NCBI RefSeq assembly: GCF_946188615.1
Contig: NZ_CAMHVK010000002.1
Span: forward strand, 175,616-215,615
Reading direction: 5' to 3'
DNA length: 40,000 bases
From: Streptococcus mitis
GTDB taxonomy: Bacteria; Bacillota; Bacilli; Lactobacillales; Streptococcaceae
Both the position numbers and the translations under genes were made by a program. This document shows, piece after piece, positions 2,488 to 39,815 of this stretch; positions within the stretch are counted from its first letter, which is position 1, and each line of letters begins with the position of its first letter. Under the pieces are notes generated by a model. That model was not told the origin of the DNA. It was given only the letters and a program-made list of their open reading frames with translations, and did no database searches.

Positions 2488-3534
2488 TTATACCTCCATA
2501 ATATATTTCCAATCTGCGACAATCACATGACCGTTTTCATCAGCAAGCAAGGTATGTTCTGTACCGTCGTCTGTACGAATCGGAGCAGTGAAGTCGTTCT
2601 GCAAGAACATGTACTCAATAGCATTTAGTCTATCTTCGTGTTCCTGAACCTCACGCTTCAAAGCTTCTACAGACTCATAGCTTGCTTGTCTGATGTTGTC
2701 TACGTTACCTAGACCTACCTGCGCCTTCGTAACGCTATGTGGATTGTTGCGACTGTTTAAGTGATTTTGAAAATCAACTTTACTTGCTTGTTCGACGTTT
2801 GCGACATTCCCTAACCCCACTTGTTGCTTCGTTACATTGTGTGGGTTGTTTCGGTTGTTGATGTGACCAGTTAGGTCAACCTTCTCAGCCTTACTTCTAG
2901 TGACCTCATCAATCTTTTCAGGCAGACCGTCGATGTCTGCCACCTTATGCCTGTGACTTGCGTCAGCTTTCCCATTCCAGCGTGTGCGTTCTTGATCAGA
3001 AACGTGACGGGCAGCATCTCTGATGTGATTATCGATATTGGTTTGTAGCTTTCTTTCTGTTGCCTTCAATTCAGGGACAGTTGCATAAACCAAATCAGTC
3101 GCATTGTATTGAATGGTAATCTGACTATTCTTACTAATAGTCGTGTTGAAATCATAATCTCGATACACATAGGCAGATGTTTTAGGAGGAATCACATCCC
3201 CCTGTTCTGCCCAAGTATACATATACATGAATTCTTCATGATTACCACGTTTTGCAAATACACCGATTTCATTCACAATCATTTCACGCTCAATCCGTGA
3301 ATTATCAAACCGTGCTGTGATACGGATTGTATCAGCGACATCAGTAGACATAGACTGCGTCACTTGCAGCGAATGAACAACTTGTACGATATTGTTTTTC
3401 TTGCCAATGTCCGTCCGATGCCGTCCGCTACCCAAAGCTATGCGAGTAAAGACCAGTGGTTCTCTATTTTGAATCGCTAAGGCCGTTTCACTGATTGCTT
3501 TATCAGTCACAATAGGCTGGATAAAATATCCCAT
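2488..3534 (-). CDS. Tail fibre protein
   Basis: 348 aa. Two tandem copies of the phage-fibre repeat NNPH-VTK-QVGLGNV-N. Lies directly after the baseplate genes. Confidence 0.75.
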   Translation of the reverse strand: MGYFIQPIVTDKAISETALAIQNREPLVFTRIALGSGRHRTDIGKKNNIVQVVHSLQVTQSMSTDVADTIRITARFDNSRIEREMIVNEIGVFAKRGNHEEFMYMYTWAEQGDVIPPKTSAYVYRDYDFNTTISKNSQITIQYNATDLVYATVPELKATERKLQTNIDNHIRDAARHVSDQERTRWNGKADASHRHKVADIDGLPEKIDEVTRSKAEKVDLTGHINNRNNPHNVTKQQVGLGNVANVEQASKVDFQNHLNSRNNPHSVTKAQVGLGNVDNIRQASYESVEALKREVQEHEDRLNAIEYMFLQNDFTAPIRTDDGTEHTLLADENGHVIVADWKYIMEV

Positions 3535-4063: not shown

Positions 4064-5105
4064 TGATGGTTACCTCCGCTAGTTTAGGAAGCATGTTGGT
4101 AGAAAGTTCAATACTTTGCTCCTTATCATTCAACAAAATACGGTCCACATCTCGAACCCCGTTAATTCTGTCAATGATTGTGGCAACTTTATAGTTTCGA
4201 ACCTCTTTCTCTTCAAATGCTTCTTCACGTAAGTATTTAATGAGTTGAACTTTCGCCTCATTCTTGATTGTTTCAATATCTACATCTTCATCAATCTTGA
4301 TAGTTGCAGCAATACGAACATTGTAGCCACTTACAGACTGAACAGTCACATAAGCACCAATCGGAGCAACGCCTAAACCGTGGCCACTCGGTTCAGGATC
4401 CAAGTAATTCTTGAATTTCTTTACCAGCTCTGCACTTGCTTCGTTGCCGTCAGCATCTGTAATCGATACACGTACTGTATTTTCACCTTTCCATAGTGGC
4501 TCTACCAAAGCAGAACCAACACCAACAAACTCACTTGCCCACTTTTTATATTGAGCAATATTCCCGTTTAAGGTCGGTGTTTTCAAGTACTCAATGGTAC
4601 GCTTACGGAGTTGTTTATCCGTCTCTTCATCTTCGCCTACGACGATGACAGATCCGATTTCTGCCCCTTTAAATCCATTCAATACATCGATGTTGATGAG
4701 TTGCCCTCTTACATAGTTGGGAGCATTTCCGACTTGTTCAGCTACTACACTATACTCAAATCCAGAGCGACGTTCTAAAACACGGAAATTGTACTCACTG
4801 TTAACCACACTGAAACGGGTTCCGATTGGGATTTCCTGTTTGAATTGAACCAGTCGGACTGATGCCGTAGCTGGTAAGCGTTCAACTCCAAACTGCCTAC
4901 ATAAACGAGTTAGGAAGATTCCTGTACTCGTGTCTAAAAAGTTGACTTCCTCATACGATTTTAAGACCGTATACTGAATGGCAACTTCTCGAGCTGCAGG
5001 CGCTACTAAATTGTACAAGACAGACCCTTGTCTTTTGTCATACTTATCATCAAACAAGGCCAGCATATCCTCTAAAATTTCTGGATATGTTTTTACCTTT
5101 ATCAT
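4050..5105 (-). CDS. Baseplate J-like protein (XkdT-like)
   Basis: 351 aa. Size, position and overall similarity to baseplate J family proteins of contractile-tail phages. RBS GGAGGTG. Confidence 0.75.
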   Translation of the reverse strand: MIKVKTYPEILEDMLALFDDKYDKRQGSVLYNLVAPAAREVAIQYTVLKSYEEVNFLDTSTGIFLTRLCRQFGVERLPATASVRLVQFKQEIPIGTRFSVVNSEYNFRVLERRSGFEYSVVAEQVGNAPNYVRGQLINIDVLNGFKGAEIGSVIVVGEDEETDKQLRKRTIEYLKTPTLNGNIAQYKKWASEFVGVGSALVEPLWKGENTVRVSITDADGNEASAELVKKFKNYLDPEPSGHGLGVAPIGAYVTVQSVSGYNVRIAATIKIDEDVDIETIKNEAKVQLIKYLREEAFEEKEVRNYKVATIIDRINGVRDVDRILLNDKEQSIELSTNMLPKLAEVTINVTS

Positions 5106-5793: not shown

Positions 5794-6759
5794 CTACTCA
5801 CTTCCTGCCATGAATAATTTAATTTCCATCGTGTGCTTTTCTGCACTGAAGGAATGAGTTGCCTCTTCAATGACATACCATCCCTTCTTCTCAATATCCT
5901 TAACATCCACATAGACTGCATGGCCTGCTAAAAAGTCAATACTTCCAATATCAGCTTTTAGACTGAAAGTTTCTTTGGGACGGTTTTTCATCTTCAAGAG
6001 CATTTCGCCCCATTGCTTTATTTGCCCCTCAGTCGCTTTCTCATCCACTTTTTTCATGTACTGGAGTTTTCCCCAAGCGCCGATATTGTAGCTGTCCTGA
6101 TAGATGTAGACCTCTCTCTTCTTGGTTTCTTTGTTCTCTTGGATCAAGCGGACAATATTGGCGCTATCTTCAATTGAACCTTCGAACTCAAAACTAGACA
6201 TAAAAGATTCATTACCGATAATGTATTGGATTGGTAAGTTTTTGGGAGTTGTTAGTGTCAACTCTCCGAACTTGTCATACAAAACCAGCAATTCTCCACT
6301 TTGTACCAAGGTCTCATCCATGGCTTCTTGGATAATATCCAAGGCCTTCTTATCCTCCTTTAGTTGAGGGGATAAGGTCACAGCTGGGGCTTTTAGTTCC
6401 CCAATCTTCAAATCAAAATCTCCTGCGATTGCCGATACGATTTGATTGACATTTTTATCCCTGGCAACAAAGTTGATATTGCGTAGTAAGTACTTTATCT
6501 GATCATGGAAGGTCAAGGTTGTTTTAGTATCTTTTTCGTACTTGATTTTCGTCAAATAACCAAAGAATACCTCTTTATCATCTAGCTTGAAAGCAAGTGG
6601 AGAACCATATTCAAAAGCTACTTTTGTAGAATTGTACAAGGTAATCTCCACACTCCAAGCCGACCCTTTCCTAGTTGTCTTGAACTCAACTTTTTCAGAC
6701 ACAGTTGCTAAATCCCATGTATCTCCAGTTTTATTGTTCTGATAGAATAATTGCATCAT
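5794..6759 (-). CDS. Baseplate hub protein, XkdQ/YqbQ-like
   Basis: Track ORF 5794..6792 uses TTG. ATG at 6759 forms an ATGA overlap with the LysM gene stop, with GGAG upstream. Confidence 0.6.
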
Positions 6760-19889: not shown

Positions 19890-21146
19890 CTACCAGAATG
19901 ATATTCCTGGCTGTCTCATATCGTCTTCAAACGCATATCTTGTAGCGTCGATTGTGTGGTCGTTTACTTCTTCTAGCTTGGGTTTGGGATTTCCATCACG
20001 GTCAACTGCATAGTCGGCACTTTCGAACTCTCTTGCGATATTCGGTGTGCGCTCTGGATCTATCACAATGGCATCCAAATCATCCAACCAGCGCTCTCCA
20101 TACTCCCTACTGTCAGGACCTTTCTTAGCACCTTGAACAAGCGGAATATTCAGCTGCAGTTTTAACTCATCAATCGACTTAGGTTCTGCGCTATCACAGG
20201 TTATCATCTGAGATTGATAGCCTTTCTCACGGATTCTTTCAGCCAATTCACGGTTGCTAATCTTCACGCCATAAATCTCATCAATAGCATAGATAACACG
20301 TTTCTTCTTGTCGTAATGCCATCTTACAAAGGCCAGAGGGTCATTAGCATAACCGAAGTCGTTGCCTTGCCGAATGTTATCGAACCTTGCTATCTCCTCA
20401 TCTGTAATCTTGCGGAATACCAGATTTTCAAACGGTGCTACACCAGAACCGATAGCCTCACCCAGATACTCCCAACGGTAACGCTTCTCTGAACGTTCTC
20501 TCGTGGCCTCTGCTTCTTCTATGAATGCTTGGGATATATATGGGTTATCTAAGTAAGTCGAATGGTGTACGTGGGTGTTAGGAGGCTGTATGACACTCTC
20601 ATACTTCTTATTCACCCAAGACTGTTTTCTTTTTGGAGGATTGTAAGAGTAAAAGAATTTATAAAAAAGACCATCATCCAATTCTCCACGAAGAAGGGAG
20701 TTGGTGATTGTCTTTACTTCATCTTCAGTTTTGAACTCAGCAAGCTCTTCAATCCAACCGATTGCGAATGGAAAACGGCTGTCTTTCAAGGACTTAATAC
20801 GCTCTGGATCTTGTGCACCACGGAAGATAATATAATTTCCTCTTGGGATATAGGTTATCTTCAAAGGGGACTTATTAATCTTAAATAAATGACTAACCCC
20901 TTGCTCACTAATCGCCCATTTCAATTGCTCATAGACCGATTGTTCTAAGGTATTATCCGTCTTACGAATACACACGGCATTGACTGGATAGCGCATAATC
21001 AGTTGAATGATAGTGTGTCCGAGGTCGCTTGACTTACCAGAACCACGCCCACCCTTTTCAACTACATGTAAGATTTTAGGGTCGAATGCTGCACGCCACA
21101 TAGAGTAAAAAGCCTTTGGGATAAACTCACTCATTCTACGCTTCAT
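19890..21146 (-). CDS. terL: Terminase large subunit (PBSX-type)
   Basis: 418 aa. Walker A GGRGSGKS near the N-terminus. C-terminal nuclease-like acidic motifs. Overlaps terS. Confidence 0.9.
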   Translation of the reverse strand: MKRRMSEFIPKAFYSMWRAAFDPKILHVVEKGGRGSGKSSDLGHTIIQLIMRYPVNAVCIRKTDNTLEQSVYEQLKWAISEQGVSHLFKINKSPLKITYIPRGNYIIFRGAQDPERIKSLKDSRFPFAIGWIEELAEFKTEDEVKTITNSLLRGELDDGLFYKFFYSYNPPKRKQSWVNKKYESVIQPPNTHVHHSTYLDNPYISQAFIEEAEATRERSEKRYRWEYLGEAIGSGVAPFENLVFRKITDEEIARFDNIRQGNDFGYANDPLAFVRWHYDKKKRVIYAIDEIYGVKISNRELAERIREKGYQSQMITCDSAEPKSIDELKLQLNIPLVQGAKKGPDSREYGERWLDDLDAIVIDPERTPNIAREFESADYAVDRDGNPKPKLEEVNDHTIDATRYAFEDDMRQPGISFW

Positions 21147-21582
21147 CGCTAACTCCTATATCATCAACGAATTGAACAGCCGAAGACATCTCGATTTCTT
21201 TTCTCTCTAAATACGCACCATTTACTTTGAATATATGATCTAGGGAACGTTGTCTTTCTTCAATTGTCGGAGTAAATTCATAAGTCGTTTCAAATACTTC
21301 AACACCTTCAGCAGTCTTTACAGTTTTCTTAGAATATCCTTGTTGAGTTTCCCCTCTAGCGATACTAGCAGAGATTGCCAAGGCTTCTGCGATTGACATT
21401 GAACGTTCGTCAAAAAGTTCTTCTGTACGTTTTTTAATGTATTCAGAAATGTCAACTTTTGTCAACAATCTTTGTCCTATAGACCTCGCTGTTTTATCAG
21501 AATACCCTGCTTTTATTGCAGATTGTGTTGCATTTCTACTGATGATGTACTCATCAGCGAAATGTTTCTGTTTATCGTTCAT
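21136..21582 (-). CDS. terS: Terminase small subunit
   Basis: 148 aa. N-terminus MNDKQKHFADEYIISRNATQSAIKAGYSDKTA is typical of Terminase_2 small subunits. Confidence 0.85.
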   Translation of the reverse strand: MNDKQKHFADEYIISRNATQSAIKAGYSDKTARSIGQRLLTKVDISEYIKKRTEELFDERSMSIAEALAISASIARGETQQGYSKKTVKTAEGVEVFETTYEFTPTIEERQRSLDHIFKVNGAYLERKEIEMSSAVQFVDDIGVSDEA

Positions 21583-21608
21583 TTTCCATCACCACTTTTT
21601 TTTTAATC

Positions 21609-21632
21609 AAAAAAGCCACACGATGTGTGACC
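21609..21632 (-). terminator. Intrinsic terminator about 27 nt upstream of the terS RBS
   Basis: Minus strand GGUCACAC-AUC-GUGUGGC (5 Watson-Crick pairs plus G-U/G-C extension) followed by U6. Confidence 0.6.
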
Positions 21633-21668
21633 TTTTCAAGACCTCTCACTGCGAATTAAAACCGCAAT

Positions 21669-21692
21669 TGGAACGACAGGATTCGAACCTGT
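21669..21692 (-). other. Orphan tRNA-type T-arm plus 3' acceptor-like strand (not a complete tRNA)
   Basis: Minus strand ACAGG-UUCGAAU-CCUGU then CGUUCCA. No complementary 5' acceptor strand or anticodon arm upstream. Confidence 0.4.
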
Positions 21693-22424
21693 GACGTCAT
21701 CCGTCTACCATATATCCATTAACCAGCATGAGACTACTGCTTTAAACGAGTGACTTTTGATAACTTATGGTTTATTATCTTGTCCACAAATATTCCTACT
21801 TGTATCACCCATGCACGATTGGTTAGACCAATCACTCCTTACATCGCAAACTACTAAGCCATTTTTCAATTAACGAAGACTCCGCTAAAAGTCTAAGCTG
21901 CTTTACTCTTTGACTTTACTCTCATCCTTGCGAGACTTGAGCAGGCAATCTAATTGCCGAAGTACACTTTCGTTTGTGACGGGCGATGACTTTTGCTTTT
22001 TTGAGTTTTTTCTATCTTGAATAGCCTTAAAATATAAAAATCATCTTTCATCTATCACAGACACGCATCGCCATGTGTTTCATTCTCTTTTGAAGAACAA
22101 AATGCACAGCGCCTGCTTGTTATCGATTGTTTTGCGGACAATCAACTCACCTTACATACTTTTGGGAGGCGCCCAATTTTTGTAAGATATGGTATTAAGC
22201 TCTTGTTGCACCTCGAACCAAATACCTCTTTCCTCTTATAGACTCGTCTCACAGCCAAACTGCCACGTTTGCATTTCCTCAGCACCTTGCCGTTGGAATC
22301 TTTCTGTTTTAACTTCGCCCACCTATTCCAAAACTGAAATAGTTAAGATTAAATTGCTTAGATCGACCATTACTGGCAGGATGTTTGATAGATTTAAAAA
22401 CATCCTTTTCCTGAGTTACCACAG

Positions 22425-22453
22425 ATTATCTAGGCTAAGCCCTAAAAATGCAA
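22425..22453 (-). promoter_or_regulatory. SigmaA-type promoter pointing leftward into the ORF-free region
   Basis: Minus strand TTGCAT (22453-22448), 17-nt spacer, GATAAT (22430-22425). Confidence 0.5.
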
Positions 22454-22470
22454 GGCGACTACTACCTTGC
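22444..22470 (-). terminator. Intrinsic terminator after the 42-aa ORF
   Basis: Minus strand GCAAGG, 9-nt loop, CCUUGC followed by AUUUUU. Confidence 0.55.
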
Positions 22471-22487
22471 TTGTTAATTACGTTAGA

Positions 22488-22616
22488 TTATTTATAAACA
22501 ACAATATACGTCAGTTTATTATTAATCATTACAGGTTCTTTGATACACAACAATTCTTTTACAGTTTTCGCAAATTGTTTCGCATCTTCCAATTTATTAA
22601 ACATTGCTTGTTTCAT
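22488..22616 (-). CDS. Small hypothetical protein (42 aa)
   Basis: Below the track cutoff. ATG at 22616 lies 7 nt after GAGGTG. MKQAMFNKLEDAKQFAKTVKELLCIKEPVMINNKLTYIVVYK. It has its own terminator. Confidence 0.4.
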   Translation of the reverse strand: MKQAMFNKLEDAKQFAKTVKELLCIKEPVMINNKLTYIVVYK

Positions 22617-22648
22617 TTAAAACACCTCGTTGTGAAATACAGCATTAA

Positions 22649-22715
22649 CGGCGATGTCCGGACTCGAACCGAAAAAAATACATAGGAGATAAATCACTTT
22701 ACGCCTGTCACCGCC
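22649..22715 (-). other. tRNA-like element: acceptor stem plus T-arm, with no D-arm or recognisable anticodon arm
   Basis: The 5' GGCGGUG pairs with the 3' CAUCGCC (7 bp, one G-U). T-arm is UUCGG-UUCGAGU-CCGGA. Only 67 nt long, and the 35-nt middle section does not fold as a cloverleaf. Confidence 0.35.
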
Positions 22716-22735
22716 AAAACGAGGCCGAAGCCTCG
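22716..22735 (-). terminator. Intrinsic terminator ending the early/middle operon
   Basis: Minus strand CGAGGC-UUCG-GCCUCG followed by UUUU, 80 nt after the activator gene stop. Confidence 0.75.
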
Positions 22736-22816
22736 GAAATAAAATGAAAAATATAAGGAGTTATCAGTGCGCTTACCGCCTTCAGCTGATAATACTATTT
22801 TAGCAGATTAGAACTA

Positions 22817-23242
22817 TCATTTACTATCGTTATTATCAAACATTTTAGACATTTTAGCTAACGCTCTACCTCTTGTTCTTTGGATAGTTGCTGGGCTACA
22901 TCTTAATTTTCGTTCGACTTCATTCCACGTTAGGCCATTGATATAAAGCAACCTCATCACAATGTTTTCAAACGGATCATCAAGAGATTCAATCGCTTGA
23001 ATCATCTCGTCACGTTCACGATAAATCGACCTAATTTCCTCGTACAACTGTTCTGACTGGTCGATAATCGATACATTCAAATCTTCAGTCTTATTCTTGT
23101 TATCTCTAGCTTTAGGCATCGAATCAAACGTCTGCCCTCGTAAGATACTAGAACGCAAACTAATCAATTCTTGATGTTTCGACTTAGCTTTTATATCGAT
23201 ATATGGCAAAGCCTTCAACCTCTGTTTAATATCTACTGTCAA
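22817..23242 (-). CDS. Late-gene transcriptional activator (sigma-70 region-4-like; ArpU/RinA/DUF1492 class)
   Basis: 141 aa. TTG start after GAGGTG. C-terminal HTH LTWNEVERKLRCSPATIQRTRGRALAKM. It is the last gene before the packaging module. Confidence 0.65.
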   Translation of the reverse strand: MTVDIKQRLKALPYIDIKAKSKHQELISLRSSILRGQTFDSMPKARDNKNKTEDLNVSIIDQSEQLYEEIRSIYRERDEMIQAIESLDDPFENIVMRLLYINGLTWNEVERKLRCSPATIQRTRGRALAKMSKMFDNNDSK

Positions 23243-39637: not shown

Positions 39638-39808
39638 TAGTGTGTTCACCTCCGTTATTATTTTGCTTGGGGAATTTTTCCAAAAGAAAAACGCGCCCAA
39701 ACCTAGACACGAAAGTACAATACGCTTCTTTTTACATGATACGTTTTGTCCTCGGTAGGATACTTATGAGTCGAGCTCCCCTACTGTCTTAGGCAGTTTT
39801 TTCAAACC
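39638..39808 (-). promoter_or_regulatory. rplJ 5' leader (probable L10-leader autoregulatory RNA)
   Basis: A ~170-nt untranslated leader lies between the promoter and rplJ. Firmicute rplJ operons carry an L10(L12)4-binding leader. Structure not verified here. Confidence 0.45.
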
Positions 39809-39815
39809 GTATATA

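Follow-up and report, generated by a model that had tools for sequence, protein, structure and literature searches.

An intact GOLLD RNA gene between an LtrB-type activator gene and terS in Streptococcus mitis DNA

Genetic context and family of the RNA

Some of the largest non-coding RNAs of bacteria and phages belong to the GOLLD family, first described by Weinberg et al. in 2009 (as cited in PMC12286853); it has been recently shown that these RNAs form RNA-only nanocages. In this work we analyzed a stretch of 40,000 nt of Streptococcus mitis DNA (assembly GCF_946188615.1, contig NZ_CAMHVK010000002.1; hereafter the window, in whose coordinates all positions are given), in which the minus-strand genes encoding a late transcriptional activator and the small subunit of the phage terminase (terS) are separated by 1,234 nt (21583-22816). 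A first-pass annotation of these letters had remarked that the gap holds no minus-strand open reading frame (ORF) of at least 60 amino acids, as the ORF list bears out, and had proposed that it encodes a large structured RNA of the GOLLD or ROOL class, or else an undescribed one, transcribed as a unit running from its own promoter to a terminator. From the analyses presented here we conclude, with a probability of about 0.95, that positions 22441-21725 (-) are an intact GOLLD RNA gene.

The whole window was scanned against Rfam 15 with Infernal at the gathering score, and the interval 21400-23000 was scanned permissively, with E values up to 1. GOLLD (RF02032) was matched at 22117-21725 (-) with 276.1 bits, against a gathering score of 150, and an E value of 6.6e-78; the match spans model positions 1-416 of 416 and is untruncated. 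In the permissive scan of 21400-23000 no family besides GOLLD was returned, and ROOL is therefore excluded; it stayed unmatched in that interval even with E values up to 1, and the scan of the whole window at the gathering score did not match it either. ROOL is also a large ornate RNA of phages and prophages that is found near tRNAs and forms cages (PMC5737381, PMC12286853), but its sequence and fold are unrelated to those of GOLLD. The class proposed for the RNA was right, the member being GOLLD; the option of an undescribed phage RNA falls, given that GenBank phage records already contain near-identical copies under the name GOLLD. At this locus we are dealing with a known RNA family, ordinary for a phage group where copies have been annotated before.

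The setting of GOLLD is that of a phage, with a DUF1492 late activator on one side and terS and terL on the other, and with homologues that are Streptococcus phages; the region is most likely a prophage of a mitis-group Streptococcus. The genes that delimit the gap are the following:

22817-23242 (-): late transcriptional activator gene, LtrB/DUF1492 family, 141 amino acids (Pfam PF07374, 31.4 bits against a cut-off of 21.5)
21136-21582 (-): terS, terminase small subunit, the first late gene, 148 amino acids (Pfam Terminase_2, E 4e-29)

In addition to DUF1492, the activator shows a weak Pfam signal for sigma-70 region 4. The proteins of the LtrB family are late activators, and the function of the Ltr proteins is taken from PMC3753634.

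The GC content of the unit is 0.39, compared with 0.35 in the DNA immediately upstream, and equals the mean of the window (0.393), so that its description as not AT-rich stands. Besides the 42-codon ORF that had been taken as the only short one on the minus strand of the gap, the ORF list includes one of 47 codons that starts with GTG (22142-22285), and others. A protein-coding reading of the region was rejected: neither these short minus-strand ORFs nor the plus-strand ORFs of 102 and 85 amino acids are conserved, and the homologues have no ORF in common, whether by position or by frame. For the same reason the idea of a decayed gene fails.

Extent, domains and conserved structure

The RNA and its parts are located as follows:

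21725-22441 (-): full-length GOLLD RNA, ~717 nt (Rfam match, conserved 5' boundary GGCUUAGC and a consensus of 185 pairs)
22118-22441 (-): GOLLD 5' domain, ~324 nt, outside the Rfam model (RNAalifold and pair counts on 13 sequences)
21725-22117 (-): GOLLD 3' domain, ~393 nt, the part covered by Rfam (cmscan, 276.1 bits)
22066-22072 (-): GGCGAUG, 5' partner of a long-range (pseudoknot-type) pairing, pairs with 21982-21988
21997-22056 (-): linker, A/U-rich (24% GC) and variable, following the first 3'-domain hairpin (unaligned, length-variable columns 406-475)
21982-21988 (-): CAUCGCC, 3' partner of the long-range pairing, pairs with 22066-22072

The Rfam model and the annotations derived from it in GenBank, which in the related phages comprise the 394-nt Rfam part, cover the 3' domain alone and leave out the 5' domain. 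The homology with the pneumococcal, S. oralis, S. agalactiae and S. suis phage loci begins at the invariant block GGCUUAGCnnAGAUAAUC (22441-22424), and the boundary GGCUUAGC (22441) is invariant across all the diverged copies; the mature 5' end probably lies 3-5 nt upstream of 22441, near 22445. With its full 5' extent the gene is almost twice as long as the 3' segment that is annotated publicly.

The structure was analyzed in an alignment of 13 full-length sequences, i.e. the window and 12 related copies from streptococcal phages, nine of them diverged (identity to the window 50-57% for the 5' domain, 71-76% for the 3' domain). The consensus obtained with RNAalifold has 185 pairs in 32 helices; before counting, two weak helices (columns 98-100/761-763 and 476-479/486-489) were dropped and the long-range pairing of the 7-mers was substituted. 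Standard pairs are formed in 97.8% of the cells, compared with 37-42% when the partners are slid by 1-3 columns, and none of 500 shuffles reached any of the observed pairing measures. Two-sided, compensatory changes occur at 91 of the 185 pairs, which shows ongoing selection for structure, and the copy in the window forms 182 of the 185. An objection from missing covariance-model support or missing covariation therefore fails, both the GOLLD match and these 91 pairs having been found.

The 5' domain consists of a multi-helix junction followed by several covarying hairpins, with 18 helices in total, most of which show compensatory changes. The junction is closed by the invariant GCUUAG (22440-22435) and CUAAGC (22361-22356). 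When the 5' domain was folded alone, RNAalifold paired GGCUUAGC with the start of the 3' domain; this pairing was rejected as an artefact of truncation, since in the full-length fold GGCUUAGC pairs with CUAAGC. The latter helix is invariant, hence covariation supports neither of the two pairings. In the 3' domain (helices 19-32), 97-100% of the cells are paired and many helices carry compensatory changes; one optional hairpin is absent (approximately model positions 232-250), and the stretch in its place was treated as an insertion. Each of the four hairpins that had been picked out by eye is a helix of the Rfam model or of the covariation-supported consensus, and the 9-nt direct repeat described along with them is present.

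The complementarity of the two 7-mers, also noticed in the first-pass annotation, is confirmed by 7 pairs that are formed in 98.9% of the cells and covary, one of them changing from G:C to A:U in 5 of the 13 sequences. It has been reported that one GOLLD pairing predicted from covariation proved to be an intermolecular bridge (PMC12286853), and the sequence of the 7-mers is compatible with pairing either within one molecule or between molecules. The linker that lies between them, largely deleted in one related locus (L064), matches the position of the internal linker that is disordered and faces inward in the solved GOLLD cages (PMC12286853). The window thus encodes a two-domain RNA with a linker inside the 3' domain and essentially all the consensus helices intact.

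Relatives of the RNA and comparison with solved structures

A megablast search against phage records matched 22 records of Streptococcus phages, of which 16, from S. pneumoniae and S. oralis, carry DNA that is 94-97% identical to the window (among them IPP8, IPP9, IPP60, IC1, K13, V22, 8140, SF39, 109751, phiARI0285-1, phiARI0746, phiARI0598b and Javan345). The block of homology with these records extends from ~22470/22480 to 21605, that is, from the hairpin that precedes GOLLD through GOLLD and a pseudo-tRNA to the terminator, and in these phages it is also located immediately upstream of terS; in phiARI0285-1, phiARI0746 and phiARI0598b a 'GOLLD' ncRNA is annotated directly upstream of the terminase genes. 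In contrast, the DNA upstream of 22470 differs, and the 42-codon ORF of the window is found in only 7 related loci. For the phages of S. agalactiae the megablast match is confined to the core of the 3' domain (82%), and the copy of an S. suis phage can be aligned over its full length.

A scan of IMG/VR for the 5' motif yielded 120 loci, which form 28 clusters at 97% identity; GOLLD scores of 245-277 bits were obtained both for the diverged metagenomic viral clusters that were scanned and for the S. agalactiae phage copies. When species-representative bacterial genomes were scanned with a 16-base motif, 27 of the 101 matches were accompanied by GOLLD-like sequence and the rest were mostly due to chance. 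The hosts named among those 27 are all Streptococcus (mitis, pseudopneumoniae, pneumoniae, suis, porci, porcorum and minor), and the best match to the whole unit is an S. mitis assembly, with 95.7% identity over 1,221 nt. GOLLD has also been reported in mycobacterial tRNA arrays and outside prophages. In the S. suis phage Javan565 (L005), GOLLD (~2505-3205) lies between the terL and portal genes and is followed by tRNA-Phe and tRNA-Trp; in this case the module has moved and is still inside the late cluster.

The RNA of the window shares with the GOLLD family the full-length model match, the conserved 3' domain, the variable 5' domain, the internal A/U-rich linker and the location in a prophage. 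Adjacency to tRNA genes is frequent in the family, though not obligatory; in the window, tRNA-derived remnants fill both slots in which relatives have real tRNAs. The differences are not essential: at ~717 nt the RNA falls short of the >800 nt that many members reach, and it lacks the optional 3'-domain hairpin.

The closest relative with a solved structure is the 700-nt GOLLD of S. agalactiae, which by cryo-EM is a dodecamer (PDB 9L0R), its 3' domain alone being mainly a decamer (9LMF; PMC12990946). The comparison was made with two S. agalactiae phage loci (L003 and L004), not with the PDB sequence itself. Both RNAs are of the streptococcal subtype, start at GGCUUAGCnnAGAUAAUC and share covarying helices; both are also devoid of one hairpin of the 3' domain, P21b in the S. 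agalactiae RNA according to a review, although the two absent hairpins were not mapped onto each other. The 3' domain is ~74% identical to that of the S. agalactiae phage copies and the 5' domain ~54%; the window has ~17 extra nt in one hairpin of the 5' domain as well as a longer linker. In addition, a real tRNA-Ser(gct) and a tRNA-like element border the S. agalactiae phage copies, whereas remnants border that of the window. The GOLLD RNA env-38, of 833 nt, forms a 14-mer nanocage (PDB 9MEE; PMC12286853). It has the same family, domain order and disordered linker, ~76 nt into the 3' region, as the RNA of the window, but it comes from a marine metagenome, is longer, has another stoichiometry and carries the extra helices P9, P11a-c and P21b, which according to the review are absent from the S. 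agalactiae copy.

tRNAs and tRNA remnants next to GOLLD

Between the activator gene and terS, GOLLD is flanked by the following elements, listed in the direction of transcription:

22787-22805 (-): extended -10 promoter-like element TGCTAAAAT (22805-22797) plus AGTATTATCA, 12 nt after the stop codon of the activator gene
22649-22715 (-): upstream tRNA-like element; its acceptor-like stem has 7 bp (GGCGGUG/CAUCGCC) and its T-arm 5 bp and a UUCGAGU loop, the middle part being degenerate
22488-22616 (-): ORF of 42 amino acids (MKQAMFNKLEDAKQFAKTVKELLCIKEPVMINNKLTYIVVYK) with the ribosome-binding sequence GAGGTG, between the upstream tRNA-like element and GOLLD
22444-22470 (-): hairpin GCAAGG-N7-CCUUGC followed by AUUUUU (T2), terminator-like, directly upstream of the GOLLD 5' end (-10.1 kcal/mol, z -3.0)
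21668-21717 (-): decayed tRNA (pseudo-tRNA) with an intact T-arm (ACAGG-UUCGAAU-CCUGU) and the 3' acceptor strand CGUUCCA, its D arm and anticodon arm lost
21609-21632 (-): intrinsic-terminator-type hairpin (T3), GGUCACAC-AUC-GUGUGGC plus U6, 27 nt before the terS start codon (-15.4 kcal/mol, z -2.4)

In diverged relatives real tRNAs lie at a fixed spacing on either side of GOLLD and delimit it. Upstream, a tRNA or tRNA-like call ends 3-5 nt before GGCUUAGC in 7 loci (Ser-gct in four of them, unassignable in the other three). Downstream, a tRNA starts 9-14 nt past the last GOLLD hairpin in 18 loci; most are Ser-gct, and the other calls are Phe, one with the anticodon UUA and a marginal His-like one in L021. 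The tRNA with the anticodon UUA (ochre-suppressor type, 'tRNA-Stop' in ARAGORN) is located at 4198-4275 (-) of a diverged phage contig (L063), 11 nt past its GOLLD. In another locus (L098), directly after GOLLD, there is an Rfam tRNA match of 113 nt (5896-6008, 36 bits) with two T-arm-like motifs; either a single tRNA that carries a large insertion or a fusion of two remnants may account for it.

In the window, ARAGORN detected no tRNA gene, and Rfam gave no tRNA match at E up to 1 in 21400-23000; for this reason the elements with a T-arm are called remnants and not tRNAs. The tRNA-type T-arm that had been noticed near the 3' end of the unit is real (CAGGUUCGAAUCCUG, at about 21692-21676), and the pseudo-tRNA to which it belongs fills the slot where the relatives carry a real downstream tRNA. 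It represents a short form, common in mitis-type loci and ~23 nt shorter than the element of phiARI0285-1; in L021 the element is better preserved, and ARAGORN reports it as a tRNA. Between the pseudo-tRNA and the terminator next to terS, Javan345 (L002, ~3330-3420) and many mitis-type loci carry a conserved element of ~90 nt (UUGUAUCUCUGUGAG...ACAGAGAUAAAGUAGCG), for which Rfam gave no match and whose single-sequence fold is not significant (z -0.9); the corresponding stretch of the window differs and is much shorter.

The upstream tRNA-like element occurs in 39 related loci, where both stems are kept in 16 distinct variants; it has no recognisable D arm or anticodon arm, and its folding energy is no better than that of shuffles. 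It is preceded by a hairpin with a UUCG loop (22735-22720), which was rejected as a conserved terminator: in many relatives the hairpin is followed by ACAUGG and not by a U-run. At the other side of the 42-codon ORF, the T2 hairpin aligns with the T-arm and acceptor end of the upstream tRNA-like element of the S. agalactiae phage loci L003 and L004. Only 7 of ~120 related loci have an intact version of this ORF, for which Pfam gave no match and which resembles an accessory insertion in the leader.

Terminator and proposed entry into the late genes

The putative terminator that had been placed at 21632-21609 is confirmed as a stable hairpin with a U-run. Of 99 related loci, 85 have a perfect-stem hairpin and a U-run past the GOLLD module, and in 75 of these 85 the next long ORF begins within 60 nt of the hairpin, as judged by a crude detection of ORF starts. 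The stems of these counterparts covary (ACAC/GUGU, CUC/GAG, AUCAC/GUGGU), the outer GUCAC...GUGGC being kept. The U-run can also pair with an upstream A-run (AAAAGG...CCUUUUUU-type symmetry, 21609-21637), and on the plus strand there is a weaker hairpin with a T-run.

No promoter-like site fits in the 27 nt between the U-run and the start of terS. The expression of terS therefore probably depends on read-through of the terminator.

Candidate promoters

The first-pass annotation had placed the start of the unit at a promoter TTGCAT-17 nt-GATAAT. Both hexamers are present (22453-22448 and 22430-22425) at the spacing of 17 nt. However, TTGCAT agrees with TTGACA at 3 of 6 positions, and the two hexamers together with the consensus at 8 of 12; the site is below the threshold of a consensus promoter scan that overall gave 5 sites, versus 6.9 in shuffles. 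Moreover, GATAAT is located inside the invariant GOLLD block GGCUUAGCnnAGAUAAUC that is common to all the diverged copies, and TTGCAT is the 3' arm of the hairpin 22470-22450 and is not conserved as a -35 region beyond close relatives. We rejected this promoter on account of its weak -35, of a -10 that lies within conserved RNA sequence and of a -35 that lies within a hairpin arm. Of the promoter-to-terminator unit, the terminator end stands and the promoter end is not supported.

A different candidate was found next to the activator gene. The pattern TGnTAnnAT-RGTAKTRTC is present 44-499 nt upstream of the GOLLD 5' motif in ~95 of 127 loci, diverged lineages included, and in the window and in loci L001 and L004 it lies between 12 and ~40 nt past the stop codon of the preceding gene. 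The gene that precedes the module encodes a DUF1492 protein in the window, Javan345 and phiGBSVK-E1, and one annotated as ArpU-family in LYGO9. Ltr activators are reported to have their binding sites immediately past their own genes, and a single promoter upstream of terS to drive the whole late operon (PMC3753634). The conserved pattern after the activator genes, together with these reports, leads us to infer that the 5' leader of the late transcript contains GOLLD; the extended -10 element at 22805-22797 is a candidate late promoter for this leader, likelier than TTGCAT/GATAAT. The motif CTAAAAT occurs three times on the minus strand, twice in tandem inside the 3' end of the activator gene (22842-22857) and once coinciding with the -10 of the promoter-like element (22797-22803). 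These copies resemble the 7-nt direct repeats bound by Ltr activators (PMC3753634), a resemblance that could be due to chance.

Proposed expression of the RNA and alternative explanations

As an alternative to a discrete RNA, the first-pass annotation had considered a long leader of the late operon. This alternative is probably correct as well, alongside GOLLD and not in its place, given that the best promoter candidate directly follows the activator gene and that terS starts 27 nt past the terminator. According to this proposal, transcription would start at the extended -10 element, just past the activator gene, and the late transcript made during lytic growth would carry GOLLD in its 5'-proximal part. 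The conserved terminator at 21632-21609 would set the 3' end of the RNA; alternatively, the RNA would be excised at the tRNA-derived elements on either side, much as RNase Z and RNase P could act on the real tRNAs of the relatives, and that the remnants still direct processing is speculative. The polymerases that read through the terminator would be the only ones to reach terS and the late genes. The transcript would fold into separate 5' and 3' domains and self-assemble into a closed homo-oligomeric nanocage with the linker facing inward. These steps of transcription and processing are much less certain than the identity of the RNA, and we give them even odds at best. Cage assembly is most likely, by homology with the S. 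agalactiae and env-38 RNAs, the only GOLLDs for which it is known. It has been observed that the expression of GOLLD rises during phage lysis, and cage structures have been reported (PMC12286853, PMC12990946); in the window, expression in the lytic cycle is suggested by the position downstream of a late activator and by the promoter-like element. Published suggestions for the role of the cages include the sequestering of tRNAs, ribosomes or other macromolecules in late infection.

Several points weigh against this proposal. At this locus the transcription start, the RNA ends, the read-through and the processing are all inferred from sequence. Two hairpins, that at 22470-22450 with its U-run and that at 22735-22720, stand between the proposed promoter and GOLLD, and if either of them terminates transcription a closer promoter for GOLLD is needed. 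The acceptor stem of the downstream remnant forms ~4 of 7 pairs and its folding energy is no better than that of shuffles; the poor acceptor stems of the remnants make cleavage by RNase P or RNase Z doubtful there. The consensus terminator scan did not list 21632-21609, probably because the U-run pairs with the upstream A-run. Finally, the number of subunits of the oligomer cannot be read from the sequence, given that the 5' domain is ~54% identical to the S. agalactiae phage copies and that the RNA is ~30 nt longer.

Extended to the Ltr-regulated streptococcal phages in general, the proposal is that GOLLD is not an independent gene and instead a processed 5' leader of the late operon, bounded by a promoter, tRNA-shaped cut marks and a terminator. 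The extended -10 promoter would drive a module of tRNAs, or tRNA-like elements, plus GOLLD; T-arm and acceptor relics, kept after the decay of the tRNAs, would mark the cutting points; and the covarying terminator, at most 60 nt before the first late ORF, would set the ratio of cage RNA to late mRNA. We advance this generalization tentatively, with the odds somewhat against it; if it is true, there would be a mechanical coupling between the production of cage RNA and the onset of virion assembly. As functional analogies only, in the pR'-6S RNA-tR' leader of phage lambda a short RNA ends at a terminator directly before the late genes, and in tRNA-punctuated precursors structured RNAs are bounded by tRNA-shaped elements that can be cut by RNase P and RNase Z. 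In a difference from lambda, no antiterminator is known in Ltr-type phages.

GOLLD could instead be a self-contained unit that is transcribed from TTGCAT-17-GATAAT, starts at ~22418 and stops at 21609, independently of the late operon. The existence of both hexamers at their 17-nt spacing agrees with this possibility, the hairpin and U-run at 22470-22444 could insulate the unit from upstream transcription, and the block of homology with the pneumococcal phages begins at that hairpin. However, the -35 is poor, and the site stays under the threshold of a scan that gives no excess over shuffles; GATAAT is conserved even in lineages that have the 3' end of a tRNA at the position of the '-35', and the hairpin and the -35 are both absent in L010. 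Furthermore, an RNA starting at ~22418 would lack GCUUAG, which provides the 5' strand of the invariant helix closing the first junction. We consider this explanation very unlikely. The opposite emphasis, a mainly regulatory leader in which the structures and the three terminator-like hairpins gate the late genes by antitermination or attenuation and the free RNA is a by-product, is also unlikely, although it draws on terS starting 27 nt past the terminator with no promoter-like site between them, on the terminator hairpin, which in 75 of 85 loci immediately precedes the first late ORF, and on a candidate promoter ~1.2 kb upstream. Against it, GOLLD occurs outside late leaders, as in Javan565 and in the mycobacterial and non-prophage regions of the literature, isolated GOLLD transcripts fold and assemble unaided according to the literature, and the conserved tertiary and quaternary architecture goes far beyond what a leader needs; gating is compatible with the proposal above as an extra layer, not as its replacement.

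It might also be argued that the region is a decayed tRNA array or protein gene that is now functionless, given its two tRNA-like remnants without any intact tRNA and the hypothetical proteins annotated across the homologous DNA in some GenBank records. This has next to no probability: the window keeps 182 of 185 pairs and scores as high as any relative, compensatory changes have accumulated at 91 pairs, and the homologues have no ORF position or frame in common.

With an intact GOLLD, the locus does not add a new class of RNA; it places a compact (~717 nt) member of the family in a prophage of mitis-group streptococci, close relatives of the genetically tractable pneumococcus. What the present analysis contributes, apart from the full 5' extent of the gene, is the replacement of the proposed promoter by a conserved candidate next to the activator gene and the recognition of a conserved order in which the promoter is followed by a tRNA relic, GOLLD, a second tRNA relic, the terminator and the late genes. 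The defined order in the window, headed by the activator gene and ending with terS, is an experimental handle on the role of the cage.

Other structured RNAs

Two further matches to Rfam families were observed. A related viral contig (L049) has a match to the skipping-rope RNA at 3103-3182 (-), with 41.5 bits against a gathering score of 36.7; in this contig only ~460 nt of the GOLLD region match the window, and Rfam gave no GOLLD match. The second match at the gathering score in the scan of the whole window, besides GOLLD, is a ribosomal protein L10 leader (RF00557, 83 bits) at 39676-39811 (-), and that end of the window is therefore bacterial chromosome beside the prophage.

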